In this document: in pieces, positions 46,280-64,000 of the stretch
Numbering within the stretch: the first letter of the stretch is position 1
Layout of the letters: the number at the start of each line of letters is the position of its first letter
Assembly: GCA_044344255.1 (NCBI GenBank)
Contig: JBIJDH010000022.1
Span: forward strand, 1 to 64,000
Length of the DNA stretch: 64,000 nt
Direction: 5' to 3'
From: Myxococcota bacterium
GTDB lineage: Bacteria; Myxococcota_A; UBA796; UBA2385
Made by a program: the position numbers and the translations under genes
The notes under the pieces: model-generated
What the model was told of the DNA's origin: nothing
The model's database searches: none
The model's input: only the letters and a program-made list of their open reading frames with translations

Positions 46280-46388
46280 CGCGCGTCACCTCAGAGGGGC
46301 CGCTTATGCGAAGGACCCGGAGTTGGCAGCCCTCGCATAAGCGCTCCGCGTGCGCTATCGTGGGGGGAGTCACAACTGTGGAGCCTCG

Positions 46389-49334
46389 ATGCCGTCTCCT
46401 CGCCGCCCCTATCCTCGCTGCTCATCCCCGTACGCCCTCATCGCATTGCTCGGGGTCCTCAGCGCGTGCGGCGGGGGCATCAGCCCCAAAGCAGACCAGA
46501 GCACCGAGCGCGATCCCACCTGGGGCGACACCCCCACGCCCACCGACAGCGGCGGCGTAGACACCGGCGATCCGCTGCCCGCGGCCGACTGGGCGCTCGT
46601 GGCGTCGGACACGAAGTCGGCCCTGATGAGCATCCACGGCCGCGGCCCCGATGATGTCTATGCCGTCGGCGCCGACGACGGTTCGGGCGGCCTCATCCTC
46701 CACTACGACGGCAGCAGCTGGAGCCGGGTCACGAACGGCGACAAGCACGACCTGTGGTGGGTCGAGACCTTCCCCGACGGCTCCGCCATCGCCGCCGGCT
46801 CGGGCGGCACCATCCTCCGCGACAAGGGCGACGGCGCCGGCTTCGTCCGCGACGTCACCCCCGGCCTCGGCTCGCAGACGATCTACGGCGTCTGGGGCTC
46901 GGGCTCCGACGACCTCTGGGCGGTCGGCGGCTTCGCCGGCCGCTGGGGCTTCCTCTGGCACTGGGACGGTGAGTCCTGGACCAACCAGGAGCTCCCCGAC
47001 GGCCTCCCCCTCTCCGCCGATGGCGAGCTCCCCGCCCTGTTCAAGGTCTGGGGCCGCGCCGCCGACGACGTCTGGGTGGTGGGCGGCAACGGCACCATCC
47101 TCCACTACGACGGCGCCGCCTGGTCGGTGATCGACGGCGGCACCGATCAGCTCCTGTTCACGGTGCACGGAAACGCGGACGAGGTCGTGATCGTCGGCCC
47201 CGAGACGGTGCTCGTGGGCGGCCTCGACGGCTTCACCAACCAGGTCCCCGAGGGCGCCGGCATCCTCCAAGGCGCCTGCACCGAGCCCGACGGCGGTGTG
47301 CTGGTGAGCGGGCAGAGCGGCACGCTGTGGGTGCTCTCGGTCGAGGGGGAGTGGGAGCAGCAGGTCAACACCTTTGGCGTGAGCCCGGAGTCGCTGCACG
47401 CCACCTGGGTCGACCCGACCGGCGGGCGCTGGTCGGTGGGCGGGAGCGTGCTCTCCGGCGCCCTCGACCAGGGCATCGTCGTGCACCAGGGCGAGCTGGC
47501 CTCGACCTACACCCGGCCGGCCGATCCCGATCCCATCCCCGCCTCCTGCTCTGCCGACGACATCGACCCCGACCCCTCCGGCTCGATGGCCCGCCGCTGG
47601 AACGAGCAGCTCCTGAACGCGATCCGCCGCGACATCCCGCGGCCGGTGGTGCACGCGCGCAACCTCTTCCACACCTCGGCCGCGATGTGGGACGCCTGGG
47701 CCGTCTATGACGACACCGCCGATCCGTACCTCGGTGAGCCGCGCGTCACTTTGGCGGATCCGGGAACCCTCGAAGCGGACCGCGACGTCGCCATCTCCTA
47801 CGCCGCCTATCGGGTGCTCACCCACCGCTACACCGGCCAGATCGGCGGTGAGACGAGCGTGGCCTGCTTTAACGCCTTCATGGACAGCCTCGGCCTCGAC
47901 CCCGACGACGCCCACACCGACGGCGAGGCCGACGATCCCATCGCCCTCGGAAACCGCATCGGTCAGGCCTACATCGACGCCTTCGCCGACGACGGATCCA
48001 ACGAGGCCAACAACTACGCCGACACCACCGCCTGGGTCTCGCCGAACGCCCCGCTCGTGGTCGACAACCCCGGCAACGTGATGGTGGAGCCGAGCCAGTT
48101 CCAGCTCCTCAACCTCGCCAACGCCGAGACGCAGAACGGCATCGTGCTCGAGAGCGGCAACCAGAAGTACATCGGCGCCCAGTGGGGCCTCGTCACCCCC
48201 TTCGCCCTCGGCGATCACACGGGCACCTACGGCTACATCGACCCCGGCGGTGAGCCCCTGGCCTCCGACCCCGAGATGGCCGAGTGGGTCCTCGACGTGC
48301 TGCGTAAGAACGCGCTGCTCGACCCCAACCTCGATGGCACCCTCGACATCTCCCCGGGCGCCTACGGCAACAACAGCCTCGGACAGAACGACGGCGCGGG
48401 TCATCCTGTAAACCCGATCACCGGCCTGCCCTACGCGGCGAACGTGGTGAAGATGGGTGACTTCGGCCGCGTGCTGGCCGAGTTCTGGGCCGATGGCCCC
48501 GCCTCGGAGACGCCCCCCGGCCACTGGAACACGATCGCCAACTACGTGAGCGACGAGGCCGATCAGGACACCCTCGGCGAGGCCGCCTTCGGGGCGCCGA
48601 TGGACCGCCTCGCCTGGGACCTGCACCTCTACTTCGCGATGAACGGCGCCCTGCACGACGCCGCCATCACCTCCTGGGGCCTCAAGCGCGAGTACACGGC
48701 GTCGCGGCCGATCAGCCTCATCCGCTGGATGGCCTCCCAGGGCCAGCGCTCCGATCCCACGCTGCCCTCCTACAGCCCCGACGGCCTGCCCCTGGAGGCG
48801 GGCGTCACCGAGCTCATCACCGCCGAGAGCAGCGCGCCCGGTGAGCGCCACCACAACCTGCGCGTCTTCCAGGGCGAGGTGGCGGTCAAGATGTGGCTCG
48901 GCGAGCCGGGAGACCGCGCCAACCAGACCACCGGGACGGGCTGGGCGCGGGCCAAGGAGTGGTTCCCCTATCAGCGCCGCACCTTCGTGACCCCGGCCTT
49001 CCCCGGCTACACCTCGGGCCACAGCACCTTCTCGCGCTCGGCCGCCGAGGTGCTCACCCTGCTCACGGGCTCCGCCTACTTCCCCGGCGGCCTGGGCGAA
49101 TTCGACGCCCCGGCGGGCACCTACCTCGTCTTCGAGGACGGCCCCTCCGAGACCATCACGCTCCAGTGGGCCACCTTCCAGGACGCCGCCGATCAGGCTG
49201 GACAGTCGCGCATCTACGGGGGGATCCACATCTTCCCGGATGACCAGTACGGCCGGGAGGCCGGCTACACCGTCGGTCATATGGCCGTAGACGAGTCCAG
49301 CGCCTGGTTCGACGGCACCGCCATCGCCGACTGA
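46389..49334 (+). CDS. Lipoprotein with N-terminal beta-propeller repeats and a vanadium haloperoxidase/PAP2-like domain
   Basis: LSAC lipobox; DDVWxVG..G.ILHYDG repeats; K...RP, TPAFPGYTSGHSTFS, SRIYGGIH. Confidence 0.85.
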   Translation: MPSPRRPYPRCSSPYALIALLGVLSACGGGISPKADQSTERDPTWGDTPTPTDSGGVDTGDPLPAADWALVASDTKSALMSIHGRGPDDVYAVGADDGSGGLILHYDGSSWSRVTNGDKHDLWWVETFPDGSAIAAGSGGTILRDKGDGAGFVRDVTPGLGSQTIYGVWGSGSDDLWAVGGFAGRWGFLWHWDGESWTNQELPDGLPLSADGELPALFKVWGRAADDVWVVGGNGTILHYDGAAWSVIDGGTDQLLFTVHGNADEVVIVGPETVLVGGLDGFTNQVPEGAGILQGACTEPDGGVLVSGQSGTLWVLSVEGEWEQQVNTFGVSPESLHATWVDPTGGRWSVGGSVLSGALDQGIVVHQGELASTYTRPADPDPIPASCSADDIDPDPSGSMARRWNEQLLNAIRRDIPRPVVHARNLFHTSAAMWDAWAVYDDTADPYLGEPRVTLADPGTLEADRDVAISYAAYRVLTHRYTGQIGGETSVACFNAFMDSLGLDPDDAHTDGEADDPIALGNRIGQAYIDAFADDGSNEANNYADTTAWVSPNAPLVVDNPGNVMVEPSQFQLLNLANAETQNGIVLESGNQKYIGAQWGLVTPFALGDHTGTYGYIDPGGEPLASDPEMAEWVLDVLRKNALLDPNLDGTLDISPGAYGNNSLGQNDGAGHPVNPITGLPYAANVVKMGDFGRVLAEFWADGPASETPPGHWNTIANYVSDEADQDTLGEAAFGAPMDRLAWDLHLYFAMNGALHDAAITSWGLKREYTASRPISLIRWMASQGQRSDPTLPSYSPDGLPLEAGVTELITAESSAPGERHHNLRVFQGEVAVKMWLGEPGDRANQTTGTGWARAKEWFPYQRRTFVTPAFPGYTSGHSTFSRSAAEVLTLLTGSAYFPGGLGEFDAPAGTYLVFEDGPSETITLQWATFQDAADQAGQSRIYGGIHIFPDDQYGREAGYTVGHMAVDESSAWFDGTAIAD

Positions 49335-49361: not shown

Positions 49362-50192
<831 letters not shown>

Positions 50193-50365: not shown

Positions 50366-50938
50366 TCAGCCGAGCGGGGCCACCCCGATCAGCCACTTGT
50401 GGAAGAAGAGCAAGGTCACCGCGTACAAGCCGAGGCCCCCGACCACACAGATGAGGTCGTTCCAGCGCCCCCGCGGCGCCCCCGGAACCGGGCGGACGGG
50501 CCGCCACCGCAGCGAGAGCAAGTCCAGCGCCGCCCACACGAGGAAGGCGCCGAACAGGGCGAGATCGTGGAGCGCCCCGTTCACCAGCAGGTGCGATGCG
50601 GCCCACAGGCCCACCGCCAGCAGCATCGGGTTCTTCACCGCGTCCGAGATCCGCCCCGGCATGTACGCGGCGAACAGCAACGGGAAGAAGGGCAGCATCA
50701 GGGCGAGCACGCCGTGCCGGAGCCCAAAGGGCGGCCACCAGAGGAAGACGGGGCTCCGCCGCGCCACGGCGTAGCCGAAGACGACGAGCCCGAGGCCGAC
50801 CATCGAAACCAGGGAGTACAGCCCCTTCCAGGCGTTCTCCCCCATGCGGGCTACCATGGCGTCTCGCCAGCGGTTGGCCACGATCGACACCGAGTGCACG
50901 CCGAGGAAGAGGCCGAGGCCGAGGACGAGCAACAGCAT
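50366..50938 (-). CDS. NnrU-family membrane protein
   Basis: LFLGVHS, KGLYSLVS, PML..WAASHLLVNG. Confidence 0.85.
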   Translation of the reverse strand: MLLLVLGLGLFLGVHSVSIVANRWRDAMVARMGENAWKGLYSLVSMVGLGLVVFGYAVARRSPVFLWWPPFGLRHGVLALMLPFFPLLFAAYMPGRISDAVKNPMLLAVGLWAASHLLVNGALHDLALFGAFLVWAALDLLSLRWRPVRPVPGAPRGRWNDLICVVGGLGLYAVTLLFFHKWLIGVAPLG

Positions 50939-51351
50939 GTTCAGCGCTCCCTTTGCCTCGACCCCCTATCGGCTCCGCCCCGCGTGGCGAGCCGCCTCAC
51001 CCCCCGGCTCCCCGAGGCTCACCGGGCCACAACATAGGTCCTCCCCCTATCTCCTCCCAGCGGGCTGATCTCCAGCAGGTTCGGTTCGTTCTACAGCGGC
51101 AGGCTCGAAGGGGCGGGAATAGATCCAAGACGTTCCCAAGGGGAACAACGAGTCCGCTCAGAGGAGCCTCAAGTCCCCCTGAGTCTACGTACCGTCCACC
51201 GCCTTTGAAATGGTTCGAAGACCCTCGCGCTGCTCAACAGCGCACGGTGCAGGTGTAAGATTCGGTAGCCCGCTCGACGCCTCACGCGCCCCGCTCACCC
51301 CGAACACCTGAGGGAGTCCGACTCCCCACCCCATCTGATCGGAGCCCCGTC

Positions 51352-53634
51352 ATGTCCAATTCTGCCCGGCCCCTCCTCCTCGGCGCTGCCCTGCTGCTCT
51401 CGCTCTCTGCCGGCTGCGGTGGCGGCGCAGGCGCTGACGGCAAAGACGGCATCAACGGCAGCAACGGCGCCAACGGCGAGAGCGGCGCACCCGGCGGCAA
51501 CGGTCTCGATGGCGTCAACGGTGTCGACGGCATCAACGGCGTCGATGGCGTGGACGGGGAGACCGGCGCGGACGGTCACGACGGCCGCGACGGCCATGAC
51601 GGTGAGGGCCCCTGGGGCATCAACCTCACCCTCGTCTCGATCGACGGCGGCAGCGGCTCCGCCGGCGCCTTCCAGGTGGGCGACTTCCCGAGCGTGACCT
51701 TCACGCTGACCGACGACGACGGCCACGAGTACGACGTCTCCGAGCTCACCGGCTTCTACTTCAACGTCGCCGGCCCCACGAGCCACTACGCCAACGCGAT
51801 CCTCTACTCCGACCTCGCCAAGGTCGCCGACACCGCGGTCTACAACTTCGACGGCACCTGGACCTACGACTTCGACATCGCCTTCCCCGCGACCTACCAC
51901 GCCGTGCTCAACGACACGACCGACCTCGGCACCGACGACGGTGACTGGGGCGGCGAGGCGCTGGTCGACGGCACCTACACCGTGGCGGCCTGGGCCTACA
52001 GCAAGGTCACCCTCGACGACGGCAGCTACTACTACGAGGCCGGCAACGCGACCTCTGACGTCCTCTTCGGCACCGCGACGGCCATCGAGCCCCGCGAGGT
52101 GGTGCTCGAAGAGAACTGCGCCAACTGCCACGGCGACGAGTTCATGGCCCACGGCGGCAGCCGCCGCGACCTCGACGTCTGCCTCACCTGCCACGTCGAC
52201 GGCACCGAGGATCGGTACTCCGCCACCGACAGCACGGTCACCCCGGGCACCTCGGTCGGCATGACCACGATGATCCACAAGATCCACATGGGTGAGGACC
52301 TGAGCAACGGCTACACGGTCGCCGGCTACCCCGCGGACACCACCGATCCGGGCTACCCGAACTACAACTCGATCGACTACTCCGAGGTCGTGTTCCCGAG
52401 CTTCAAGGAGGGCTCCGCCTCCTGTGACTCCTGCCACAGCGGCGCGGCCGACGGCGACGTGAACACCCGCCCCACCCGCCAGGCCTGCGGCGCCTGCCAC
52501 GACAGCGTCGACTTCGCGGCTGGCACCAACCACGAGGGCGGCGCCCAGACCAACGACACCAACTGCGCGGTCTGCCACACCCCCGACAACATCGACGGCT
52601 ACCACCTCGACGCCCGCTTCGACACCACGTTCAACCCCGGCATCAACGTCGAGATCCTGACCGCCTCCGGCGGATCGGGCTCGGGCGGCGCCTTCCAGGC
52701 CGGTGACACCATCACCATCACCTTCAAGGCCACCCACGACGACGGCACCTACGTGCAGAAGTCGGAGTTCGCCTACTCCTCGTCTTCGTCCACCTGCGGC
52801 ACCCTCGCCGGCGGCTCGACGCTGTACCTTGGCGGTCCCACCGAGCACATGGAGCGGATCCAGTACTCCACCTCTCCCAGCAGCTCGTCCACGGTGGGCT
52901 CGGTCTACGGCAGCTCCACCTACGACTCCAGCACCGGCATCTACACCTACTCGATGCCCGCTGTGATCCCCTCGACGATCCCCGCGCAGCTCAACGACAC
53001 CACGGCCTTCGGCGAGGCCGAAGGTGACTGGTACGGGCTGCCGCTGCCCTCGGGCACCTACCGCCTCGGCCTCGCCCTCTACACCACCCTCTGGGACGCC
53101 GACTGCAACCGCGTCCGCGTGGCCGATACCACCTACTTCGACATCCTGATGGGCACCGCCACCACGATCGAAGACCACGACTTCGTGGACAACGCCTCCT
53201 GTGAGAGCTGTCACGAGACGGTGGAGTTCCACGGCGACACCCGCAATGACGTCTCCTACTGCGTCATGTGCCACACCCCGGGCTCGGAGGACTCCTCCTC
53301 TGTCAACCCGACCACCAGCCTCGACTTCCCCGTGATGATCCACAAGATCCACGGCAGCAGCATCCTCGAGAACGGCTACTGCGTCGGCTCGACCTGCTTC
53401 GACGTCACCTTCCCCCGCTTCGACGGCGGCGTTCAGGCCTGCACCGCCTGCCACGGCGCCACCGACAAGTGGGAGAACCCCTCGACCCGCGGCTGCATCA
53501 CCTGCCACGACTCCGAGGACGCGGCGGCCCACGCGGCCATCATGACCGATGACGTCTACGGTGAGAGCTGCGACACCTGCCACGGGCCGGGCCGCGACTA
53601 CTCCTCCGAGTCGGTCCACGCCTGGACTCGCTGA
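51352..53634 (+). CDS. OmcA/MtrC-family decaheme c-type cytochrome lipoprotein with a collagen-like linker
   Basis: LSAGC lipobox; 20 Gly-X-Y triplets; 2 x 5 CXXCH, each set preceded by a beta domain; PREVV..NC..CH; MIHKIH twice; PTRQACGACH. Confidence 0.92.
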   Translation: MSNSARPLLLGAALLLSLSAGCGGGAGADGKDGINGSNGANGESGAPGGNGLDGVNGVDGINGVDGVDGETGADGHDGRDGHDGEGPWGINLTLVSIDGGSGSAGAFQVGDFPSVTFTLTDDDGHEYDVSELTGFYFNVAGPTSHYANAILYSDLAKVADTAVYNFDGTWTYDFDIAFPATYHAVLNDTTDLGTDDGDWGGEALVDGTYTVAAWAYSKVTLDDGSYYYEAGNATSDVLFGTATAIEPREVVLEENCANCHGDEFMAHGGSRRDLDVCLTCHVDGTEDRYSATDSTVTPGTSVGMTTMIHKIHMGEDLSNGYTVAGYPADTTDPGYPNYNSIDYSEVVFPSFKEGSASCDSCHSGAADGDVNTRPTRQACGACHDSVDFAAGTNHEGGAQTNDTNCAVCHTPDNIDGYHLDARFDTTFNPGINVEILTASGGSGSGGAFQAGDTITITFKATHDDGTYVQKSEFAYSSSSSTCGTLAGGSTLYLGGPTEHMERIQYSTSPSSSSTVGSVYGSSTYDSSTGIYTYSMPAVIPSTIPAQLNDTTAFGEAEGDWYGLPLPSGTYRLGLALYTTLWDADCNRVRVADTTYFDILMGTATTIEDHDFVDNASCESCHETVEFHGDTRNDVSYCVMCHTPGSEDSSSVNPTTSLDFPVMIHKIHGSSILENGYCVGSTCFDVTFPRFDGGVQACTACHGATDKWENPSTRGCITCHDSEDAAAHAAIMTDDVYGESCDTCHGPGRDYSSESVHAWTR

Positions 53635-53673
53635 AGCGGATGGTGTGACGGCGCCTCGCAGCGGGGCGCCCTG

Positions 53674-53710
53674 AGCGGGGGGCGGCGTCTTCGGGCGCCG
53701 CCCCCTCGCT
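53674..53710. terminator. GC-rich hairpin between convergent genes
   Basis: GGGGGCGGCGTC-TTCG-GGCGCCGCCCCC (cUUCGg loop); no U tract. Confidence 0.6.
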
Positions 53711-53727
53711 GCGTCTGGCCCCTTGGC

Positions 53728-54531
53728 TCAGGGCTTGGCGGCCACCGGGAACAAGACCGCCTCGGTGACGATCACGGGGTAGCTGTAGCCGGAGCCGTAG
53801 TCCTCATCGACCTTCACGAGGCCCTGCGCCTCGACCTCGACCCCCATCGCCGCCGCGGACTGGGTGGTCACGGTGAGGTCGTTCGTGCCGGAGGCGCCCG
53901 TGCCGTCCTGGATGTGGAGCCAGTTCCGCCCCATCACGCCCGGGGTGTACTTGACCACCTTGCCGCGTACGGTGACCGTCTTCCCCGCGAGGGCCTGGCG
54001 ATCGGACCACACCGAGGCGATGGTCTGGACGGGGCCGCCCGCGCGGGGCGCCGTGGGCGCAGGGATCGAGGCCGGCGCGGCCTCGCCGACGGGGGCCGCT
54101 GCGGCCGGCGTGGCGCCGTCGCCCGGGGCGCTGAGGCTCTCGACGAAGTAGACGAGCGGGAAGTCTCGGTTGAGCGTGTCGCTGTGGAAGTCGCGCATCG
54201 GCAGCGACAGGGTGAGCGCCACCCGGCTGCCCACGGGGGGCGCCGCGCCGCCGCTCGCCGCCCAGAGCTCCCCCTCGACCGTCTGGACCCGCACATAGCT
54301 GTACGGGGGAGCGGAGAGCCCCTCCACCACGGTGCCTTCGACGGTGGGGCCGGTGGGCTTGGTCGCCATGCCCGGCGCGGGGGCCGGGGCCTGCCCGGAG
54401 GTCGGGGCCTGAGCCGCGCCGAGGTCTTGGAAGGCCCCCGGGCTGAGCTGTCCGGGGCGGGCGCCCTCCGCGGGGGGGGTGGGCGCGGCGCCGTCACAGG
54501 CGACGAGGAGCGAGAGGAGCAGGAGGCGCAT
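53728..54531 (-). CDS. NrfJ-like OB-fold lipoprotein
   Basis: LVAC lipobox; YSYVRV...LWAA; FHSDTLNRDF; VRGKVVK...MGRNWLHIQDGTG; DYGSGYSYPVI. Confidence 0.75.
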   Translation of the reverse strand: MRLLLLSLLVACDGAAPTPPAEGARPGQLSPGAFQDLGAAQAPTSGQAPAPAPGMATKPTGPTVEGTVVEGLSAPPYSYVRVQTVEGELWAASGGAAPPVGSRVALTLSLPMRDFHSDTLNRDFPLVYFVESLSAPGDGATPAAAAPVGEAAPASIPAPTAPRAGGPVQTIASVWSDRQALAGKTVTVRGKVVKYTPGVMGRNWLHIQDGTGASGTNDLTVTTQSAAAMGVEVEAQGLVKVDEDYGSGYSYPVIVTEAVLFPVAAKP

Positions 54532-54719
54532 GGGCGATGATCCGAAGGGTGGGTTTGCGGGAGCCGATTAGCCGCCGCAGCGCGCGCAGGCTCCCTCCCG
54601 CCGAGGGGGGGAGCGTGCCCCAACCCGCCGAAGCCTGCCCTCGATCATGGTAGCGTCGAGGCCCTCTGCGCACAGGCGCGCTACAGGCTCCCTCCCGCTG
54701 TCACCCACGCGGCGCTCCG

Positions 54720-56819
54720 ATGCGCGAAGATCCGCTCCAGATGCTCTCCACACGCCCACGCACGGATGATCCTCTGAGCCTGCATCCGCCCGCTCTGTTC
54801 GCGAGCCCCGCGCAGCGGCTCGGTCGCCTGTCGCTCGCCCTGCTGCTCGCCGGCTGCGCGGGGGGAGACGGCTGGCCCGACAGCGAGGAGCCCCGCCCCG
54901 CCGCCCTCGCCGCCACCCCCGCGGGCGCGCTCGAGGGGGAGCTCACCGGGCCCGACGGGGGGCCGCTCGCGGGCGCCTTCGTCACCACCGATCCCCTCGG
55001 CATGGGCGCGACCACCGGCGAAGACGGGCGCTTCCGGATCGAGCGCCTGCTCCCTGGCGAGTACACCGTCACCGCCGCCGCCGCCGGCCTCTCGGCCGTG
55101 GAGTCCGAGCCCTTTCTGATCGAGGCCGAGGGGGTGGCCTCGGTCTCCCTCACGCTCCCGGCCCTCCCCGAGCAGGACGGCCTCCTCCGCGTCACGGTGC
55201 TCAACGCCTTTGACGAGCCCGCGGCCGCCGTCCACGTGATCGCCACCGACGGCACCCTGACGGTCGAGGGCGACACCGACGCCTCGGGCGCCCTCACGCT
55301 GTCTGGCCTCGGCGGGCGCACGGTGAGCGTCTACGCGGCTGACCCCGCCGGTCGGCACGCCGCCCGCTCCACCGACGAGATCGCGGTGCCCGCCCTCGGC
55401 GGCGCGCAGGTCTCCTTCGCCCTCTCCGGCCAGCCTGACCCCGAGTGGCTGGGCACCTCTGGCACCCGCATCTGCGTGATGTGCCACGAAGACATCGCCG
55501 CGGTCTATCAAGGCTCGGCCCACGCCCAGGCGATGTCGGCGGTCGAGGGCGCCCCCGCCCTGGCCTTTGACCTCGGGCTCACGGTCGACCTCGAAGGCGC
55601 CACCGCCACCCTGAGCCGCGAGGGCGGCGAGCCCGTCGTCACCTTGGAGGACAGCGCCGGCGCCACCTCCACCTGGCCCGTGGCGGGCCTGCTCGGCGGA
55701 GAGCGCCGCGGCGCCATCCCCTGGACCGAGGTCGACGGGGTGTCCTGGCCGCTGCCCCTCGCCTGGCGCCCCGCCGATCCGCGCCGCCCGGGATGGGAGG
55801 AGCCCGCCTGGGTGGGCACAGACCTCGACGCCTGGTTCGACACCGACGGCACCTTCGCCTTCAGCGGCACGCCCCCCGCCGCCGCCTCGGCGGAGAACCG
55901 CTGCTTCGCCTGCCACGCCACCGGCTTCACCCTCGCCTCGGACGGCGGCGGGCAGGTCACGATGACCGCGACGAGCGAGCCCGACGCGCGCTGGGACGAA
56001 GCCGCCGTCGGCTGTGAGCGCTGCCACGGCCCCGGGCTCAGCCACTCGGCCGGCCTGCTCTCGGAGAAGCGCGCCACCATCATCAACCCCGACCGGCTCG
56101 ACGTCGCGCGGGGCAACGAGGTCTGCGGGCAGTGCCACTCCGCCCTCGCAGGCGCAGCGCACACCCCCTACGCCTGGAGCGAGGCCGAGGGCCTCTTCGC
56201 CCCGGGGGAGACCCTCTCCGACTACGCCGCCAGCGACTTCTCGGCCTGGACGGAGTCTGGTGTCACCGACCTCCCCGGCGCCGCGGCCGACGAGCTCAGC
56301 CGGTCGGCGCACGCCACCAACGGCTGGGAGGCCCGCTGCACCGACTGCCACGATCCGCACGGCAGCAGCGTCCGCTCCGACCTCCGCCAGGAGAGCGAAG
56401 ACAACACCCTCTGCAGCAGCTGTCACCTCGGCCTCGACTACGCGGGCGACGCGGCGGCGATGGCCGCCCACACCGGCCACAGCGCCTACGATCCAGGCAG
56501 CGAGGGGCACTCGGGCCAGTGCACCGGCTGCCACATGCCGCCCACGGCCACCCGCTCCGCCTGGTCCGACCTCTCCGCCGCCGGAGACCTCGCCAGCCAC
56601 CGCTTCCTCGCCGTGCCCCCCGCCGAGTCCCTCGCCTACTTCGAGGCCGCCGGCGCCACGACGCTCGAGCCCGGCACCTTCGTCCCCAACGCCTGTCAGG
56701 AGTGCCACGCCTGGAACGGGTGGCGCCTCGGCGCCGCCTTCACCGGGCCCACCGGCGACATGACGGCGCGCGCCACCCACGAGGCCCTCGACGGCGCCTA
56801 TGGGCTGATGTTCCCATGA
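54720..56819 (+). CDS. Octaheme cytochrome c lipoprotein with N-terminal carboxypeptidase-regulatory-like Ig domains (start uncertain)
   Basis: LAGC lipobox; CVMCH, CFACH, CERCH(GPG), CGQCH, CTDCH, CSSCH, CTGCH, CQECH. Confidence 0.88.
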   Translation: MREDPLQMLSTRPRTDDPLSLHPPALFASPAQRLGRLSLALLLAGCAGGDGWPDSEEPRPAALAATPAGALEGELTGPDGGPLAGAFVTTDPLGMGATTGEDGRFRIERLLPGEYTVTAAAAGLSAVESEPFLIEAEGVASVSLTLPALPEQDGLLRVTVLNAFDEPAAAVHVIATDGTLTVEGDTDASGALTLSGLGGRTVSVYAADPAGRHAARSTDEIAVPALGGAQVSFALSGQPDPEWLGTSGTRICVMCHEDIAAVYQGSAHAQAMSAVEGAPALAFDLGLTVDLEGATATLSREGGEPVVTLEDSAGATSTWPVAGLLGGERRGAIPWTEVDGVSWPLPLAWRPADPRRPGWEEPAWVGTDLDAWFDTDGTFAFSGTPPAAASAENRCFACHATGFTLASDGGGQVTMTATSEPDARWDEAAVGCERCHGPGLSHSAGLLSEKRATIINPDRLDVARGNEVCGQCHSALAGAAHTPYAWSEAEGLFAPGETLSDYAASDFSAWTESGVTDLPGAAADELSRSAHATNGWEARCTDCHDPHGSSVRSDLRQESEDNTLCSSCHLGLDYAGDAAAMAAHTGHSAYDPGSEGHSGQCTGCHMPPTATRSAWSDLSAAGDLASHRFLAVPPAESLAYFEAAGATTLEPGTFVPNACQECHAWNGWRLGAAFTGPTGDMTARATHEALDGAYGLMFP

Positions 56820-57694
56820 GTGAGACCAACCTCCTCCGCTCCCCTCCCGGCGCCCGCGCGGTCCGCCACGGGCTGCTCCTCCTGGCCCTCAGCGCCGTCG
56901 CCTGCGGCACGCCGGTCGAGCCCGCCAAGGGCGCGTCCGGCTCCAGCGGGGCCGTCCAGTTCCCCCACGCCGCGGGCTACAAGGCGGGCACCGACCACGG
57001 CGCCGAGGCCCTCGCCCTCGGACAGGCGGCCTGTAACGAGTGCCACCGCCCCGAGACCAACGCCCCCACCTGCGCCTCCTGCCACGAGGGCTACCCCCAC
57101 GAGGAGGGCTGGCTCGCTGGGACCGCCCACGGCGTCGGCCTCATCGGCGAGACCGGGGCCGCGGCCCTCCAGGTCTGCGGCGACTGCCACGGAAAGGCCG
57201 AGCTCACGGCCCCCTCCTGCACCACCTGCCACGACTCCTACCCCCACCCCGAGGGCTGGGAGCTCGCCGGCCAGCACGGCGCCTACACCCTCGCCCGCGG
57301 CTCGGCGGTGGCGGCCTGCGGAGGCTGCCACGGCGCCGCCCTCGAAGGGGTGACCGACCCCGACCGGGCGAGCCCCTCCTGCACGTCCTGTCACGCCACC
57401 TGGCCGCACCCCGAGGGCTGGGCCGCGGTCGAGGGCCACGGCGCGACCTCAGCCGCGCAGCTCCCCGACTGCTACGCCTGCCACGGTGAGGGCGGCACCG
57501 GCGGCATCGTCGCCCTGGCCTGCTCCCGCTGCCACGACGCCTTCCCCCACGCCGACGGCTGGACCCAGGGCCACCTCGCCTGGGTGAACGCCCGCGGCGA
57601 TCAGGCCTGCTTGAGCTGTCACGACGCCGGCTCCGCGGCCCCCACCATGCCGGCCTCCTGCGGCGCCGCCTGTCACTCTGGGAGCGGCGGATGA
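56816..57694 (+). CDS. Repeat-built decaheme cytochrome c lipoprotein
   Basis: ATG 56816 (ATGA overlap); AVAC lipobox; 9 CXXCH plus a terminal CGAACH; recurring [FYW]PHxxG[WY] motif. Confidence 0.88.
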   Translation: MSETNLLRSPPGARAVRHGLLLLALSAVACGTPVEPAKGASGSSGAVQFPHAAGYKAGTDHGAEALALGQAACNECHRPETNAPTCASCHEGYPHEEGWLAGTAHGVGLIGETGAAALQVCGDCHGKAELTAPSCTTCHDSYPHPEGWELAGQHGAYTLARGSAVAACGGCHGAALEGVTDPDRASPSCTSCHATWPHPEGWAAVEGHGATSAAQLPDCYACHGEGGTGGIVALACSRCHDAFPHADGWTQGHLAWVNARGDQACLSCHDAGSAAPTMPASCGAACHSGSGG

Positions 57695-58971
57695 TGCTCC
57701 TCCTCGGCGGGATCTTGTCGGCCACCGCCGCCGACCGCGACACCAGCCAGGGCGACGATGGGCTCCTCGACGGCCTGCACGCCTACGTCACCTCCGCGGC
57801 GGAGGTCCGGCCCGACCTCGTCGGCGAGCGGGACGTCCGGGCCCGACAGAGCCTCGGCCTGTCCACCCCGGTGGGCGAACACTGGTCCTTCGACCTCTCC
57901 GGCGCCCTCCGCCACGGCAGCGTCCACGACGCCGATCTCGACCTCCACGCCCTCCACCTCCAGGGAGAGGGGGAGCGGCTGCACCTCGAGCTCGGCCGAC
58001 AGGTGGTCGTCGATCCCCGCGGCCTGCAGCACCTCGACGGCCTCCGCCTCGAGCGCAGCGCCGGGCTCGTGGTCCCCGCATTCTGGCTCGGCCGGCTGTG
58101 GGCCCCCGAGGCCCCCTTCAAGGACCCCCGGCAGGCCGAAGACGACGCCGCCCACGGCACCCTCGTCGGGGGCGCCTCGGTAGACCTCCACCCCCCCGGC
58201 CCCGACGGCGAGCCCTCCGGCCGCGCCGGCCTCCGCCTGGGCTTCGAGGAGCAGCTCGAAGCCAGCGAGGCCCGCTCCCACGTCTTCGGCGCCGCCGAGC
58301 TCAACGGGCCCCGCGGCGGCCGTGGCACCCTGGACGCCGAGGCCGTCCCCGGCGAGGGGCAGCGCCTCGGCCTGCGCGCCATCGGGCCGGTGGGCCGTGT
58401 CCTCACCCTCGGCCCCGAGCTCCGCTACGAGGCCCTCGGCGTCAGCACCGTCTCCACCACCCGCCGCGACGCCATGGACTGGCTCGGCGGGGATGGCTAC
58501 GGCGTCGGCAGCCTCCTCATCGCCGGTCACCAGGGCGAGTGGACCGCCAGCGTCCAAGGCGGGCCGGTCTATCGGCCCGACCGCTCGGCGGGCGCCACCG
58601 GCAACGCCAACCTCCACTACCAGGCGAGCCCCACCTTCGGCCTCGGCCTCTTCGGCCTCAGCGCCTATGTCGAGGGCTCCGCGGTCACCGGCGGCGGGCT
58701 CCAGGCCGCCACCTCCCCCGAGGGCCTCCGCGTCAGCGGCGACGTCGGGCTCTATCGATTCACGCCGCTGACCGGCGCGGTCGCATCGGTGGGAGAGGCC
58801 CGCCTGCGGGCCAGCGCCCCCCTGCTGCGCCGCACCCACGGCGCCCGCGAGACCGCCGGCCTCCGCTTCCAGGCCGAGCTGGCGAGCGGCGCCGATCGAA
58901 ACCTCCAGCCCTGGATGCGCGGCGGCGTCGCGCTCAGCGGCAACCTCGGTCCGAGTGGGGACCACCCATGA
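57691..58971 (+). CDS. Putative outer-membrane beta-barrel (porin of a porin-cytochrome complex)
   Basis: Heme-free; alternating amphipathic strands; LELGRQ...HLDG; lies between cytochrome genes. Confidence 0.65.
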   Translation: MMLLLGGILSATAADRDTSQGDDGLLDGLHAYVTSAAEVRPDLVGERDVRARQSLGLSTPVGEHWSFDLSGALRHGSVHDADLDLHALHLQGEGERLHLELGRQVVVDPRGLQHLDGLRLERSAGLVVPAFWLGRLWAPEAPFKDPRQAEDDAAHGTLVGGASVDLHPPGPDGEPSGRAGLRLGFEEQLEASEARSHVFGAAELNGPRGGRGTLDAEAVPGEGQRLGLRAIGPVGRVLTLGPELRYEALGVSTVSTTRRDAMDWLGGDGYGVGSLLIAGHQGEWTASVQGGPVYRPDRSAGATGNANLHYQASPTFGLGLFGLSAYVEGSAVTGGGLQAATSPEGLRVSGDVGLYRFTPLTGAVASVGEARLRASAPLLRRTHGARETAGLRFQAELASGADRNLQPWMRGGVALSGNLGPSGDHP

Positions 58972-59591
58972 CGCCCCGCTTCGTCTCTCTCCGCCTGTCG
59001 GCGCTCCGCCTCTCTTCCTTCTGTCTGCCCGCGCTGCTGGTCGGCCTGCTCTGGTCGGGCGCCGAGGCGAAGGACGGGCCGGACCCCGCCCTCCTCCCCT
59101 CCCCCTTCCGGCACGCCGAGCACAAGGGCGCGTTCCAAGACGCCTCGGTCACCTGCGTAGACTGCCACGCGGTCGGCCTCCGCGGCGCCGACACCACCAT
59201 CGCGGTGCCGGTGATGCCCGCGGCGCCGTGGTCCACCTGCCACGGCTGTCACCGAGACGAGGTCCGCCGGGCCCCCGCCGCGGCCCCCTCCACCTGCCTC
59301 ACCTGCCACAGCTCGATGGCGGCGCTGAAGCCGACCGACCATCAGGTCGACTGGGTCCACCAGCACGGGGACGCCGCGCGGTCTCTCCAGGCCGACTGCT
59401 CGAGCTGCCACGACAAGGTGACCTGTGTCTCCTGCCACGAGGAGCGCGGCGCCCTGTCCAAGAACCCGCACCCGCCCGGCTTCGCCGCCTTCCACGGCGT
59501 ACAAGCCCAGCTCGACCCTCGCTCCTGCACCACCTGCCACACGCCCTCCACCTGCACGAGCTGCCACCAGTCGGGAGCTGCCCCATGGTGA
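58968..59591 (+). CDS. Periplasmic heptaheme cytochrome c (c3/c7-like N-terminus)
   Basis: AEA signal peptide; FRHAEH; 7 CXXCH. Confidence 0.88.
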   Translation: MTPRFVSLRLSALRLSSFCLPALLVGLLWSGAEAKDGPDPALLPSPFRHAEHKGAFQDASVTCVDCHAVGLRGADTTIAVPVMPAAPWSTCHGCHRDEVRRAPAAAPSTCLTCHSSMAALKPTDHQVDWVHQHGDAARSLQADCSSCHDKVTCVSCHEERGALSKNPHPPGFAAFHGVQAQLDPRSCTTCHTPSTCTSCHQSGAAPW

Positions 59592-59878
59592 GCCGCCGCT
59601 GCGCCCTGCTCTTGTCCTTGCTCCTCGTCGCCTGCGGCGAGGAGGACCCCTGCCCCTACGGCTCGCTGCTCGACAGCCCGGCCGGCCTCACCCTGACCGC
59701 GGCCGAGCACCCCACCGGCTGGGGACAGGCGGAGTGTGTGAGCTGCCACGTCATGGAGACGCTGCACCGCTCCGGCTGCTCGCCCGACATCGATCCCGTC
59801 GAGCTCCAAGACGAGGTCGCCGCGCGGGGCCTCGAGGGCTGCGTGGACTGCCACGGCAATAACGGGGTGTCCGAATGA
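59585..59878 (+). CDS. Small diheme cytochrome c lipoprotein
   Basis: LVAC lipobox; HPTGW..CVSCH; CVDCHGNNGV. Confidence 0.82.
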   Translation: MVSRRCALLLSLLLVACGEEDPCPYGSLLDSPAGLTLTAAEHPTGWGQAECVSCHVMETLHRSGCSPDIDPVELQDEVAARGLEGCVDCHGNNGVSE

Positions 59879-60771
59879 GCGCGCCTCTCGCCCTGTCCCT
59901 CAGCCTCTCGCTCCTCCTCGCCGGCTGCCTGTCCGCAGAGGCCACCGAGCGGCTCGGCAAGAGCCCCCACGGCGCCAAGGACGGCTGCGTGGCCTGCCAC
60001 GTGAGCGGTGCGGGCGCCCAGGGCGTCGGGGCGACGAAGCCGATCGAGGCCACCTGCCGCTCCTGCCACCCCGACGCCGACATGCACCCGGTGGGCATGA
60101 AGCCGCGCACGGTGAAGGTCGCCGCGGGCTGGCCGCTGGAGGACGGCGTGGTCACCTGCGCCACCTGCCACGCCGAGCCCGCCCACGGCGGCGTCGCGGC
60201 CACGCTCCCCTCGCCCTGGCATCGCGGCGGCCCCTATCCCACGACCACCGCCTTCTGCGCGAGCTGCCATGACATCGCGGCGTACTCGCGACAGAGCCCT
60301 CACACGAAAGAGAAGACCCGGGATCCCAAGGGCGCCACATGCACGGCCTGTCACAGCGGCCTGCCGGTGACCGGCGCTGCCCCTTCGGCGTCCCGCACCC
60401 GGGTGCCTGCCGACCAGAGCTGCACGGGCTGCCACGAAGGGCAGATCCACGCCGGAGTGGTCGAGCACGTCGGCAAGAGCGTGAGCCCTGCGGTGCGCGC
60501 CGCCCTCCCGCCTGCGGTCGCCGTCAACGCCGACGGCACCATCGCCTGCTGGACCTGCCACGAGGTCCACGACGGCGTGACGGCCACTCACCCCAACCGT
60601 CGTGTCCTCGCCGACGGCCTCCGGAGCCGCGCCTTGAAAGAGGACTGGACCGCCTATGCGGGGTCGGCCTATCTCTGGCCCCGCGCCGAAGCGGATGAGG
60701 GTTCGGCCATGCTGGCCCTGTCGATCGACGACGGCGCGCTCTGTCAGGCCTGTCACGGAGAGGGCCCATGA
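59875..60771 (+). CDS. Octaheme cytochrome c lipoprotein (paired-CXXCH type)
   Basis: LAGC lipobox; 8 CXXCH; HPVG...PL..G.VTCxTCH. Confidence 0.9.
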   Translation: MSAPLALSLSLSLLLAGCLSAEATERLGKSPHGAKDGCVACHVSGAGAQGVGATKPIEATCRSCHPDADMHPVGMKPRTVKVAAGWPLEDGVVTCATCHAEPAHGGVAATLPSPWHRGGPYPTTTAFCASCHDIAAYSRQSPHTKEKTRDPKGATCTACHSGLPVTGAAPSASRTRVPADQSCTGCHEGQIHAGVVEHVGKSVSPAVRAALPPAVAVNADGTIACWTCHEVHDGVTATHPNRRVLADGLRSRALKEDWTAYAGSAYLWPRAEADEGSAMLALSIDDGALCQACHGEGP

Positions 60772-63290
60772 CCGCCTCCATCGCCCCGCTCCGCCCGCTC
60801 CTCTTCGCCTTGCCGCTCGCGCTCGGCGCCTGCGACCTGGTCGAAGTGCCCGAGATGGCCGACCACCCGCCCCTGCACGGGGTCACCGTCGTCTCGAAGG
60901 TGAAGCTCGACGCCTTCTACCCTACCGACGTCCTGCCCACGGCCGCCGGGGCGCTCGTGATCGACGGCTACAACAGCCGCCTCCTCGCCATCGACGCCGC
61001 CGGCGCCTCCCAGGAGCTCTCGATCGACCCCGCCACCTGGGCCGGCAGCCTCCGGCTCGGCGCGGGCAAGGAGGGGCATTGGGTCTCCGACGCGGGGGCG
61101 CGGGTCCTCCTCATCGCCCCCGACGGCGGCATCCTCCGCGAGCTCGAGCTGCCCTTCGGCGCCGACGACGTCCACGAGCCCGTGGCCCTGCTCGACCGCG
61201 GCGCCGAGCTGCTCGTCACCGACCGCCAGCACCACCTCCACTGGCTCGACCCGCAAGACGGCCACTTCCTCCGCTCGGTCGACCTCGGCGCCGAGGCCCC
61301 CGCCGTGCTGACCGACCTCGTCCCGCGTACGGGCGGCGGCTTCTGGGCCACCGATCCGCTCGCCGCCCAGGTCATCGGCTTCTCCGCCGACGGCGTGGTC
61401 GAGCTCCGCTTCGGGCACCGGGGCGGCGGCGTGGGCAACCTCGTCCAGCCCAAGGGGCTCGCGGTGGTGCAAGGCGGCGTCTTTGTCGCCGACTCCGCGC
61501 TCGGGATCGTCCAGCTCTTCGATGAGAAGGGCCAATTCCGCGCCGCCCTCTCCGACTTCGGAGACAAGAAGCAGGAGGCCCCGCTCGACTTCGGCCACCC
61601 CGTCGCCGTGGAGGACGCCGGAGACGGCCGACTCCTCGTGCTCGACGCCGAGGGCCCCACCCTCTGGACCCTCGAGCTCCGGGCGCCGGCCGTCGCCGCC
61701 CGCCTGGCCCAGCCCCCCGGCCGCTGGCAGCGCAGCCCGATCCTCGAGGTGATGGACAAGGTCCCCGGCGAGAACGGAGAGACCTGCCTCCAGTGCCACG
61801 ACGGCTTCGTCAAGGACAGCCGCCGCAATTGGGATCCCACCCGCTCACACCACCCGGTCCACACCGAGGTCAAGCGCGAGCTCCCCGCCTTCTTCCCCCT
61901 CGACGACAAGGGGCAGCTCGCCTGTGAGACCTGCCACAGCCCCCACGGCGAGGTCAACCCCAAGCAGGCCATCGAGGCCAAGACCGAGGAGGAGCGCGCG
62001 CAGCTCAAGCGCCAGGAGACGGGGAGCTTCACCCGCCTCTCGATGGACGACGCCTCCCTCTGTATCGCCTGTCATGCCGGCGACCCCCACGCGGCCGTCT
62101 CCGAGCAGCTCGGCGTCGGCAAGAGCCACCTCGCCGGGCAGGCCCTCCGCGAGGCCCTCGAGCGCCGCCCGAACGCGGTGCCGGGAGAGGCCGCCCAAGC
62201 CGACCTCGGCTGCGTCGGCTGCCACGCCGTCCACGGCGGCGACGGGGAGTCCCTCTCTCGACAGACGAGCGACGGGCGGGTCTGCGCCAACTGCCACGAG
62301 TCGCAGGCCACCACGGGCCACCCCACCGGGACCCGCGCCGCCTCCCGCCCCTCTCCGAGCCTCGCCTCAGCGATCCCGCTCGACCAGCAGGGACACGTGA
62401 GCTGCATGTCCTGCCACGACCTCTCCGACGCCCGGGGAGAGTCCCTGCTCCGAGATCCCGCCGACGGCGGCCAGCTCTGCGCCTCCTGCCACAAAGACCT
62501 CGCCGCCACCGTGCGGACCGAGCACAGCGGCCACGGTCTCGCCTGTCAGGACTGCCACGACCCCCACGCCGGGAAGGGCGAGCACCTGCTCGACGCGAGC
62601 CTCGTCGCCGCCACCGCCCGCGCTGAGTCTGACCCCCTCGGCTGCACGAGCTGCCACGGCCCGAAGGGGAAGGGCGGCGCCGTCACCGCCCTCCACCCCC
62701 TCGGCGCCAAGGCCCCGAACGGCAGCACCGTCTCGTGCGCGAGCTGCCACACCGACGCCCACGCTCCTTCCAAGGCCCCTGCGGCCGGCTGCGCCGACTG
62801 CCACACGGAGCAGGCCCAGGCCCAGAAGGCGGGCGGCCACGCCGGGCACGGCGACGTCGCCTGCGTGACCTGCCACAACCCCCACAAAGCCAGCGCCACC
62901 GCGGGCCTCGCCCCCGCGGGCACCAACCCTGCGTCCCTCCGCTGCCTGACCTGTCACTCGGAGAGCGCCCGCGGCCAGGCCGAGGCCCCCAAGGTCGCCG
63001 CCTACGAGCACCCCGCGCCGGTCTTCAAGACCGACGGCACCCGCTGGGAGCCGCTGGGCGGCCTGCCCCTCTACGACAAGCGCGGGATCGCGGTCGGCCC
63101 GAAGGAGAACGGCGCCCTCACCTGCCAGTCCTGCCACCTCACCCACGGGCCGGCGGAGGGCGCCGAGAAGCTGCGCCGCCCCGACGGCTGGAAGGAGGCC
63201 TGCGCCTCCTGTCACGGCGCCGACAGCCTCGTGCTCTATCGGTACTTCCACCAGCCCGACCGCCGCAAGGACATCGTGGTGAAGCCGTGA
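60768..63290 (+). CDS. NHL beta-propeller fused to a 15-heme cytochrome c, lipoprotein
   Basis: LGAC lipobox; FGHRGGGVGNLVQPKGLAV..VFVADS; 15 CXXCH counted in the C-terminal ~500 aa. Confidence 0.9.
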   Translation: MTASIAPLRPLLFALPLALGACDLVEVPEMADHPPLHGVTVVSKVKLDAFYPTDVLPTAAGALVIDGYNSRLLAIDAAGASQELSIDPATWAGSLRLGAGKEGHWVSDAGARVLLIAPDGGILRELELPFGADDVHEPVALLDRGAELLVTDRQHHLHWLDPQDGHFLRSVDLGAEAPAVLTDLVPRTGGGFWATDPLAAQVIGFSADGVVELRFGHRGGGVGNLVQPKGLAVVQGGVFVADSALGIVQLFDEKGQFRAALSDFGDKKQEAPLDFGHPVAVEDAGDGRLLVLDAEGPTLWTLELRAPAVAARLAQPPGRWQRSPILEVMDKVPGENGETCLQCHDGFVKDSRRNWDPTRSHHPVHTEVKRELPAFFPLDDKGQLACETCHSPHGEVNPKQAIEAKTEEERAQLKRQETGSFTRLSMDDASLCIACHAGDPHAAVSEQLGVGKSHLAGQALREALERRPNAVPGEAAQADLGCVGCHAVHGGDGESLSRQTSDGRVCANCHESQATTGHPTGTRAASRPSPSLASAIPLDQQGHVSCMSCHDLSDARGESLLRDPADGGQLCASCHKDLAATVRTEHSGHGLACQDCHDPHAGKGEHLLDASLVAATARAESDPLGCTSCHGPKGKGGAVTALHPLGAKAPNGSTVSCASCHTDAHAPSKAPAAGCADCHTEQAQAQKAGGHAGHGDVACVTCHNPHKASATAGLAPAGTNPASLRCLTCHSESARGQAEAPKVAAYEHPAPVFKTDGTRWEPLGGLPLYDKRGIAVGPKENGALTCQSCHLTHGPAEGAEKLRRPDGWKEACASCHGADSLVLYRYFHQPDRRKDIVVKP

Positions 63291-63439
63291 CCGCCCCCAC
63301 CGCCACCGATCCGAGCGCCAACCGGCTCCGGACCCTCAAGCTGTCGCTCCTCGCCTTCATCCTCGGCTTCATCGCCGTCGGTGGGGTCGCGATGAACATT
63401 CGGTTTCTGTGGAACGCCTATCTGCACGGGGGCCTCTAG
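63287..63439 (+). CDS. 50-aa single-TM protein
   Basis: GTGA overlap upstream and TAG/GTG overlap downstream; LSLLAFILGFIAVGGVAM. Confidence 0.7.
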   Translation: MTAPTATDPSANRLRTLKLSLLAFILGFIAVGGVAMNIRFLWNAYLHGGL

Positions 63440-64000
63440 TGTCAGCCCATCCTGAACCCTCCGAGGGGGCCGCGGGGACCTCCCTCCTCGGCGCCCCCTT
63501 CCGCTGGCTCCGCGACACCTTCCGCTTCCTCGGCGCCCACCCCTCGAGCTTCGCGGTGGTCGGCGTGGCGCTCGCCGCCGGCGCCCTCGCTGGCGTGCCC
63601 ATGCACGAGAAGGGCTACGACTACATGTGGCGGGACGCGCGCTTCTGCGACGACTGCCACGTCCACGACTATGCGAACGAGGCCTGGGCCACCTCCATCC
63701 ACGGCGGCGTGACCACCTGTCACGACTGCCACCGGGTGCCCATCCGCCACTACCCGCGCAACCTCTTCGTCACCGTCTTCGACGCGCCCCAGTCTGAGGC
63801 CGACATCCACCGCCCCGAGGTGGGCACCCAGATCTGCAGCCAGTGCCACCTGCGCGAGGAAGGAGACGAGCCGCTCACCGGCCCCCTGCCCGAGGCGGTC
63901 CGACAGAAGCTCGTCAAGGTCGACGACAGCCCGCTGCACAAGGTCCACATGTCGGCCACCTCCCGGCTTCCCTCCGCCTACCAGCGCGGCAAGGAAGACC
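63439..64000 (+). CDS. NapC/NirT (NrfH/CymA)-like membrane cytochrome c, 3'-partial
   Basis: Translated by hand; absent from the ORF track. TM helix, then YMWRDARFCDDCH..WATSIH..CHDCH...ICSQCH. Open to the window end. Confidence 0.8.
   Translation, partial: MSAHPEPSEGAAGTSLLGAPFRWLRDTFRFLGAHPSSFAVVGVALAAGALAGVPMHEKGYDYMWRDARFCDDCHVHDYANEAWATSIHGGVTTCHDCHRVPIRHYPRNLFVTVFDAPQSEADIHRPEVGTQICSQCHLREEGDEPLTGPLPEAVRQKLVKVDDSPLHKVHMSATSRLPSAYQRGKED

Follow-up and report, generated by a model that had tools for sequence, protein, structure and literature searches.

The DNA analysed here (hereafter the window, 64,000 nucleotides at full length) opens a 140-kb contig (JBIJDH010000022.1), of which it covers the first 64 kb; the contig belongs to an 8.18-Mb bacterial genome that is 95% complete. 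From position 51352 to its end, the window carries a cluster of genes for eight multiheme cytochromes and one outer-membrane barrel, which probably form a trans-envelope conduit carrying respiratory electrons outwards. The cluster comprises the following genes (lengths in amino acids, aa; Ig, immunoglobulin):

51352..53634, + strand: OmcA/MtrC-family decaheme lipoprotein, likely the surface terminal; 760 aa; TIGR03507, PF22113, PF01391
53728..54531, - strand: heme-free lipoprotein that accompanies this type of MtrC; 267 aa
54720..56819, + strand: octaheme lipoprotein with N-terminal Ig-like (CarboxypepD_reg) domains; start codon uncertain, lipobox Cys at 46
56816..57694, + strand: decaheme lipoprotein, not MtrA/DmsE; 292 aa; nine CxxCH and one CxxxCH
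57691..58971, + strand: plugless 22-strand outer-membrane beta-barrel of an unnamed family, as modelled with AlphaFold2; 426 aa
58968..59591, + strand: periplasmic heptaheme; 207 aa; signal peptide, no lipobox
59585..59878, + strand: diheme lipoprotein; 97 aa; follows the heptaheme in relatives too
59875..60771, + strand: octaheme lipoprotein; 298 aa
60768..63290, + strand: 15-heme lipoprotein with an N-terminal NHL-type propeller region, likely a periplasm-spanning wire; 840 aa
63287..63439, + strand: single-membrane-helix protein coupled to both neighbours; 50 aa; homologues at the same place in three related loci (L016, L018, L019)
63439..64000 (to contig position 64242), + strand: membrane-anchored hexaheme, candidate quinol-side module; 267 aa

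From 51352 to 63439, the cytochrome genes carry 10, 8, 10, 7, 2, 8, 15 and 6 heme motifs; 63 lie inside the window, and 66 are counted when the last gene, which starts at GTG 63439, stops at contig position 64242 and has three of its six motifs in the window, is taken as complete. A sequence-only reading of this DNA had named eight cytochromes with these counts (at least 3 for the last) beside a porin-like gene, and all were recovered at the same places, one motif being CxxxCH. A six-frame count across 51352-64242 gave 65 CxxCH, compared with a mean of 0.32 and a maximum of 2 in triplet shuffles of the same region (n = 100) and with 0.7 predicted from the genome-wide rate. No additional heme gene lies downstream of the last gene, and in the rest of the genome no other open frame with at least three CxxCH exceeds eight, nor does any form a comparable cluster. 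The overlaps previously claimed for the nine genes from 54720 are present at all eight junctions (ATGA at five, ATGGTGA, GTGA and a one-base TAG/GTG overlap). The MtrC-like gene stands outside this run, across a 1085-base gap that holds the opposite-strand lipoprotein gene, and a promoter and terminator scan of 50900-54800 gave no signal above shuffles. Lipoboxes were identified in the products of 54720, 56816, 59585, 59875 and 60768, with a near-consensus form in the MtrC-like protein; the heptaheme has none and is therefore taken to be a soluble periplasmic partner.

A contig from another sample, a river run, spans contig positions 60000-65999 unbroken, with 90 letters different. Of the 29 in-gene differences among the 40 of 87 that were listed, 26 are synonymous, including all 14 in the last gene, and the genes therefore look maintained. 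An assembly artefact was rejected, given that the river contig spans the 3′ six kilobases and that the operon recurs in relatives.

The barrel and its predicted heptaheme partner

Searches of Pfam, NCBIfam and PDB sequences gave no match for the barrel protein (57691-58971); 79 relatives were found at E<=0.001. An AlphaFold2 model built from 68 aligned sequences, out of these relatives and the query, has 22 strands and no plug (predicted local distance difference test, pLDDT, 91.0; predicted template modelling score 0.83). In a fold search, TonB-receptor and usher barrels of 22-24 strands matched at Z 17-20, and MtrB appeared at rank 19 (Z 16.0, root-mean-square deviation 4.5, 332 aligned residues); judged from the model, the likeness to MtrB is generic. 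No OmbB-like entry was among the matches listed, which does not exclude such a kinship.

Multimer modelling of the barrel with the 58968 cytochrome, as suggested in the sequence-only reading, gave a complex score of 0.74, compared with 0.02 for the best of three controls; the runs share at least 76% of their contacts, with a partner pLDDT of at least 61. The mark used for this score is reached by 116 of 157 solved complexes and by 2 of 215 mismatched pairs, and is a rough guide where custom alignments are used. Heptaheme residues 123-199, which carry hemes 4-7, contact 21 of the 22 barrel strands in the model, thus placing these hemes in the predicted barrel lumen. The best-placed contacts lie near long barrel loops, which in the usual topology of such barrels would face outwards. 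The modelled interface shows no clear enrichment of conserved barrel positions (9 of 25, compared with 104 of 397 residues), and a comparison of the heptaheme with the PDB returned no informative heme-domain match.

In a sample of 401 genomes from the phylum, strong barrel matches (E<1e-97) occur only in the class to which this genome belongs, in 13 genomes including this one. Weak matches outside the class mark barrels that adjoin a 12-13-heme cytochrome, with a full-length profile relation of 97.7%. Such two-gene pairs were observed in other classes of the phylum (L092:7959-10531, - strand; L093, L095, L098 and L099), the cytochrome having a heptaheme-like part. The remote barrels have 15 relatives, which are untitled or titled Sandaracinus or Myxococcota, with no named Anaeromyxobacter among them. 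At another locus, an open frame with at least 28 CxxCH (L097:2-2341) lies ahead of a gene with 10-11 hemes and a weak match to the barrel.

Among described systems, the Geobacter-type Pcc conduits (OmbB-OmaB-OmcB, ExtABCD and the two-gene pcc of Anaeromyxobacter; Shi et al. 2014, PMC4245776) are similar in that, as described there, a small barrel of 18-22 strands is followed by a periplasmic multiheme cytochrome of 5-14 hemes (here 22 strands and seven hemes) and accompanied by lipoprotein cytochromes. The published description of the Anaeromyxobacter pcc also fits the remote relatives beside a 12-13-heme cytochrome. Unlike Pcc, the present locus has seven cytochromes coupled in a single run, among them the NHL/15-heme wire and the membrane hexaheme, and has an MtrC-type surface partner. 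No NCBIfam, Pfam or PDB match to OmbB, OmaB or ExtB was obtained for the barrel family or its remote relatives, from libraries that may hold no such model and with no Geobacter sequence compared. The proposal of a small, non-Mtr, Geobacter-type porin thus stands as regards a small, non-Mtr barrel of 22 strands, while "Geobacter-type" applies by size and strand count only.

The MtrC-family cytochrome and its genomic partners

The product of the 51352 gene scored 270.4 bits against TIGR03507 (curated cut-off 209.3), placing it in the OmcA/MtrC family and bearing out the earlier assignment to the Shewanella type. Its best PDB cytochrome matches are MtrF (3PMQ, E 2.9e-16) and MtrC (6R2Q, E 1.9e-11), and its ten CxxCH motifs fall into two five-heme groups (residues 256-405 and 617-740), with PF22113 matched in two stretches. 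A hydrophobic leader ends in LSAG-C (Cys22) and is followed immediately by a collagen-like Gly-X-Y region (residues 27-84; PF01391; window 51421-51606) that is present in related MtrC genes too and is possibly a stalk raising the hemes above the cell surface. Domain III of Shewanella MtrC has a CX8C disulfide; the present protein has no CX8C, its non-heme cysteines being at 22, 482, 585, 677 and 682. The adjacent lipoprotein (53728-54531) has no Pfam or NCBIfam match; a homologue (49%) directly follows the MtrC gene in L101, with a weak TOBE/OB match there, and adjoins MtrC in L124 too.

A surface cytochrome of the Shewanella type normally requires two partner proteins, MtrA and MtrB. MtrB (TIGR03509) was matched in none of 41 relatives and in none of 182 sampled genomes of the class, this one included, and the same model matched 26 of the 401 phylum genomes, all outside the class. 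For MtrA (TIGR03508), nothing exceeded the cut-off in this genome and none of the 182 class genomes matched at E<=1e-25, in a search without a matching positive control. The presence of mtrAB elsewhere in the genome was therefore rejected, as no MtrB was found in the genome, its relatives or the class.

The MtrC-like gene instead co-occurs with the heptaheme. With presence across the class sample, which contains many incomplete genomes, called at E<=1e-30 for the heptaheme profile and at the same level for TIGR03507, the two matched 51 and 32 of the 182 genomes, respectively. The heptaheme is present in 31 of the 32 MtrC-bearing genomes, spanning seven families, and an MtrC-like gene occurs in only 1 of 131 heptaheme-free genomes. 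Shuffling within families (n = 200,000) gave 13.8 co-occurrences on average and at most 23, compared with the 31 observed, a count that overstates the association because related genomes are not independent; the shuffle preserves family membership, though not that of genera. The MtrC-like gene shares a contig with the heptaheme, no more than 14 kb away, in 14 of the 32 genomes. It follows the hexaheme on the same strand in L101, L121-L124 and L126, and the MtrC genes at the operon in seven relatives are 47-58% identical to that of the window (L123 is absent from the identity table). The earlier claim that the MtrC-like gene is joined to the conduit is thus upheld as a tight genomic link, seen both in this co-occurrence and in 13 of 52 related loci where the gene is near the operon.

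A different view of this link is that the nine-gene conduit is real and self-sufficient and that the MtrC-like protein, in the manner of OmcA, is a surface cytochrome only loosely associated with it and not docked, so that "hybrid" would describe a neighbourhood and not a complex. The gene has its own transcription unit in this genome, it is not near the heptaheme on the same contig in 18 of the 32 MtrC-bearing genomes, and 20 of the 51 heptaheme genomes have no MtrC-like match; moreover, MtrC/F/OmcA-like proteins without porin operons are described in Desulfuromonadia (PMC11492766). However, the near-absence of MtrC-like genes from heptaheme-free genomes, the in-line position of MtrC as last gene in six relatives, the fact that the MtrC, octaheme and decaheme of the window are all closest to one set of loci, and the lack of any MtrAB found to reduce it make a loose association very unlikely.

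Operon conservation and exchangeable ends

The heptaheme alignment served as query for a genome-collection scan. Of the loci fetched, 52 distinct ones carry the heptaheme intact, and operon order is kept in them. Loci were fetched with about 20 kb of flanks around the core, so that distant partners are missed, and duplicates were merged. Those with no intact seven-motif heptaheme call (L022-L025, L092, L093, L095, L097-L099, L103, L127 and L136) were left out; L022 and L127 are operon copies broken by many frameshifts, through decay or assembly error. A porin-family gene directly precedes the heptaheme in 51 of the 52 loci, and its three subtypes are profile-related (98.1% over the full length; 95.2% over 111 columns).

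At the inner end, 46 loci are uncut by a contig end, and a membrane-bound cytochrome is present in 36 of them: the hexaheme in 29, a divergent form of it (97.1% profile match) in 4, and a CbcL-like multiheme/cytochrome b protein in 5, replacing the hexaheme in three and standing alongside it in two. In the three replacement genomes, a hexaheme is encoded in another operon copy in two and not at all in one. The CbcL-like protein has roughly 1000 aa, eight CxxCH with N-terminal c hemes, about six hydrophobic stretches with invariant membrane His pairs, FdnI matches at E 1e-11 to 7e-17 (under the equivalog cut-off), and its own NHL/4-heme and 12-heme partners. Inserts of this type with three extra C-terminal CX3-4CH motifs were observed at L036:11339-14824, L037:11624-14677 and L101:10536-13889 (- strand). 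Compared by description, the module of these five relatives is like CbcL/MtrH/MtoC in combining N-terminal c hemes with an FdnI-like cytochrome b region, and unlike them in its extra C-terminal motifs; it is absent from the operon of the window.

The hexaheme of the window has one membrane helix at about 36-54 (hydropathy scan), followed by the first heme pair. Its profile match to the genome's own NrfH covers 44 columns (94.8%), limited to the helix end and the first two hemes; the protein is NapC/NrfH-like only in its first third, and its atlas neighbours carry PF03264. It has six hemes, compared with four in NapC/NirT/NrfH/CymA, and 219 relatives, the named ones nearly all "hypothetical"; by sequence, it is a family of its own. 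An AlphaFold2 model from a six-row alignment reached a pLDDT of 37.9. The anchor, the NrfH-like start, the position in the operon and the exchange with the CbcL-like module would together place the hexaheme at the quinone pool.

At the outer side of the 52 loci, an MtrC-family gene is present in 13, another Ig-domain decaheme in 10, and either in 22; calls of MtrC in L121-L126 were based on BLAST to the protein of the window together with genome-level TIGR03507 matches. MtrC is thus an optional end piece. The second decaheme family, with proteins of 800-900 aa that combine an Ig domain with two five-heme repeats and are 41-61% identical across species, lies beside the operon, for example at L032:14756-17485 (- strand), L030:3297-5726 (- strand) and L041:2843-5683 (+ strand). 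As a whole protein it exceeds no curated family cut-off and has no informative heme-domain PDB match, and it is a candidate unnamed surface cytochrome.

The 54720 octaheme, with a c554-like stretch and weak UshA-like matches, is the first operon gene in most relatives, and the place of the 56816 decaheme varies among relatives. The 60768 protein has weak NHL/ScyF matches and six Paired_CXXCH stretches, and a paralogous split form (NHL with 4 hemes, then 12 hemes) accompanies the CbcL-like module in relatives. Three UshA-like multihemes were also noted at L106, L115 and L119 (own genome), at 150-233 bits and below the cut-off of 275, with several weak ExtKL-like matches elsewhere.

For MtrC, octaheme (45-53%) and decaheme (48-56%), the nearest counterparts of the genes in the window lie in the same seven MtrC-bearing loci; for barrel and heptaheme they lie in 13 other loci (heptaheme 42-51% versus 33-36%). 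The locus is thus a mosaic, which suggests that MtrC, octaheme and decaheme travel together as a surface module. Barrel, heptaheme and diheme are the fixed core, and both ends are exchangeable modules.

Proposed electron path, known systems and significance

In the proposed path, menaquinol would be oxidised at the membrane-anchored hexaheme, and electrons would cross the periplasm via the NHL/15-heme protein and the octaheme and diheme lipoproteins. They would then enter the heptaheme, whose N-terminal triheme part is modelled in the periplasm and whose hemes 4-7 are modelled within the 22-strand barrel. At the outer face, the next carriers would be the decaheme lipoprotein, the Ig-stalked octaheme lipoprotein and the MtrC-family decaheme with its collagen-like stalk; habitat and the role of MtrC in Shewanella suggest that the last of these could reduce humic quinones, Fe(III) or Mn oxides under oxygen shortage. 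The host genome encodes cytochrome c assembly genes, futalosine menaquinone genes, three heme-copper oxidases and NrfH with an NrfA-like neighbour, and the stretch was found in 20 lake, freshwater and river runs from 18 studies, three of them possibly its source. No RNA run was listed among them, and one RNA run that was compared yielded short pieces only. A myxobacterial host, as previously supposed, is likely though not proven, the protein titles of relatives including Myxococcota, Myxococcales and Sandaracinus.

Several points weigh against outward respiration through this conduit, in addition to the overstatement in the co-occurrence count and the position of the MtrC gene outside the coupled run. 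The barrel-cytochrome score may partly owe to likeness with solved MtrAB, and unrelated control proteins gave up to 277 low-confidence contacts. A membrane cytochrome is lacking in 10 of the 46 uncut loci, and a decaheme in the fetched flanks of 30 of the 52 loci. The hexaheme scores below family cut-offs (PF03264, NNT, 21.3 < 24.1 bits; NrfH, 32.9 < 134.2) and has CxxCHxH at heme 1 (His in all six aligned sequences); the corresponding motif of the genome's NrfH is CxxCHxM, which has a role at heme 1 of NrfH. Its activity as the conduit's "own quinol oxidoreductase" is therefore inferred, and what stands of that earlier claim is a NapC/NrfH-like helix and first two hemes. Living in the water column and equipped with three heme-copper oxidases, the host often has oxygen available. 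Finally, deletions of NHL-linked multiheme clusters in Desulfovibrio ferrophilus are reported to have left Fe(III) oxide reduction intact (PMC9769857).

The same wire might instead run inwards, from reduced humics or Fe(II) outside to quinone and on to oxygen or nitrite. The three heme-copper oxidases and the NrfH and NrfA-like pair of a lake and river host would suit such a flow, and the anatomy resembles that of the Uet cluster, proposed for uptake (10.1101/2022.05.06.490989). However, oxidative MtoAB and PioAB systems are described as having no extracellular MtrC part (PMC6344600; Olmsted preprint), whereas surface decahemes are present here in 22 of 52 loci; these, together with the lack of any reaction-centre match in the genome, make inward flow unlikely. 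A photosynthetic link was rejected on the same negative match.

It is likewise improbable that the locus does not serve mineral respiration at all, with the hemes acting as a charge store or feeding a surface enzyme (e.g., if the Ig-stalked octaheme had a soluble or prey-derived substrate, or if iron were acquired reductively). An aerobic-capable host, the c554-like and weakly UshA-like octaheme, and the truncated operons missing either end (10 of 46) would fit this explanation. Yet the octaheme is absent from many loci where barrel, heptaheme and diheme persist, the recruited ends (MtrC, CbcL-like) are of kinds that serve extracellular respiration, and storage needs no barrel-threading cytochrome. 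Outward transfer of respiratory electrons thus remains the preferred reading.

Compared with Shewanella MtrCAB and CymA (6R2Q), the locus shares an OmcA/MtrC-family decaheme above cut-off and a modelled cytochrome-in-barrel layout, and the Rhodoferax mtr cluster (cymA, mtrH) is described as likewise uniting quinol module, barrel and surface decaheme in a single cluster (PMC6295460). Unlike MtrCAB, the barrel here has 426 aa and 22 strands (MtrB, 649 modelled residues and 26 strands), a heptaheme takes the place of the decaheme MtrA, and MtrB is absent from the class sample. In Desulfobacterota, mtrC is described as sometimes sitting apart, yet with mtrAB present (PMC12133095); no MtrAB was found here. 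Uet of Tenderiales (10.1101/2022.05.06.490989) and Occ (10.1101/695007) are, by their descriptions, conserved multi-cytochrome clusters with NHL propellers, Uet also with a barrel; on the same descriptions, Uet is set apart by its 28-strand barrel, extracellular undecaheme, trihemes, tetraheme and cupredoxin, and Occ by its 19 genes and undecaheme, and neither the heme counts nor the barrel size of the present locus correspond to theirs. PCC3 and PCC4 (He et al. 2017, PMC5566968) are described as clusters that unite a porin and multihemes with a redox protein of the inner membrane, but their defining feature is a heme-b protein of that membrane with five helices and two HX13H motifs (PCC4 hemes 4, 5, 10); no five-helix inner-membrane protein is encoded in the operon, where a simple hydropathy scan found no product with more than one hydrophobic stretch. 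The D. ferrophilus clusters DFE_0448-0451 and DFE_0461-0465, likened by description, combine multihemes with NHL propellers; in that genome, however, no porin-cytochrome conduit is apparent according to PMC9769857. Identity with PCC3/4, Uet or Occ was rejected on gene content, and no description of this operon was found in the literature searched, mostly outside subscription journals. Thus, the genes do not map one-to-one onto a known cluster, mtrAB was not found elsewhere, and the porin gene does model as a beta-barrel. Most likely, the conduit works like a Geobacter Pcc or Mtr conduit, although it is not MtrCAB; what is new is the class-wide gene set, with its unnamed barrel-heptaheme core, exchangeable ends and an MtrC without MtrAB to serve it.

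Other genes of the window were noted in passing. Directly upstream of the MtrC-like gene lie an NnrU-family membrane protein (50366-50938, - strand) and a LigB-type dioxygenase (49362-50192, - strand); NnrU is linked to nitric oxide metabolism. A 994-aa probable lipoprotein (46350-49334, + strand) has N-terminal repeats and, at its C-terminal end, a part resembling vanadium chloroperoxidase (DUF6851 above its cut-off; VCPO_2nd, a weak match).

The broader proposition, for which the chances are judged about even, is that barrel, heptaheme and diheme constitute a separate porin-cytochrome family in about one-quarter of the genomes of one uncultured class, probably of Myxococcota, with plug-in ends: a new hexaheme or a CbcL-like quinol module inside, and an MtrC-family or an unrelated Ig-stalked decaheme outside. 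On this view, MtrC would receive its electrons from a conduit that has no relation to MtrAB, and the hosts would be oxygen-respiring bacteria of the water column that turn to humics or metal oxides. Where surveys demand the complete mtrCAB set, MtrC genes lacking MtrAB are described as discarded (PMC8805035, PMC12133095); as the barrel and heptaheme match no curated family either, marker-based scans for iron and humic cycling overlook such a conduit. The whole path lies within one 13-kb stretch and can therefore be cloned and tested. If the conduit works as proposed, an unrelated and smaller barrel, with only about four hemes spanning the membrane, can supply electrons to MtrC, which would then be a portable surface module. 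It would also follow that there is a new family of quinol-side cytochromes and that an uncultured lineage widespread in lakes and rivers takes part in extracellular respiration.

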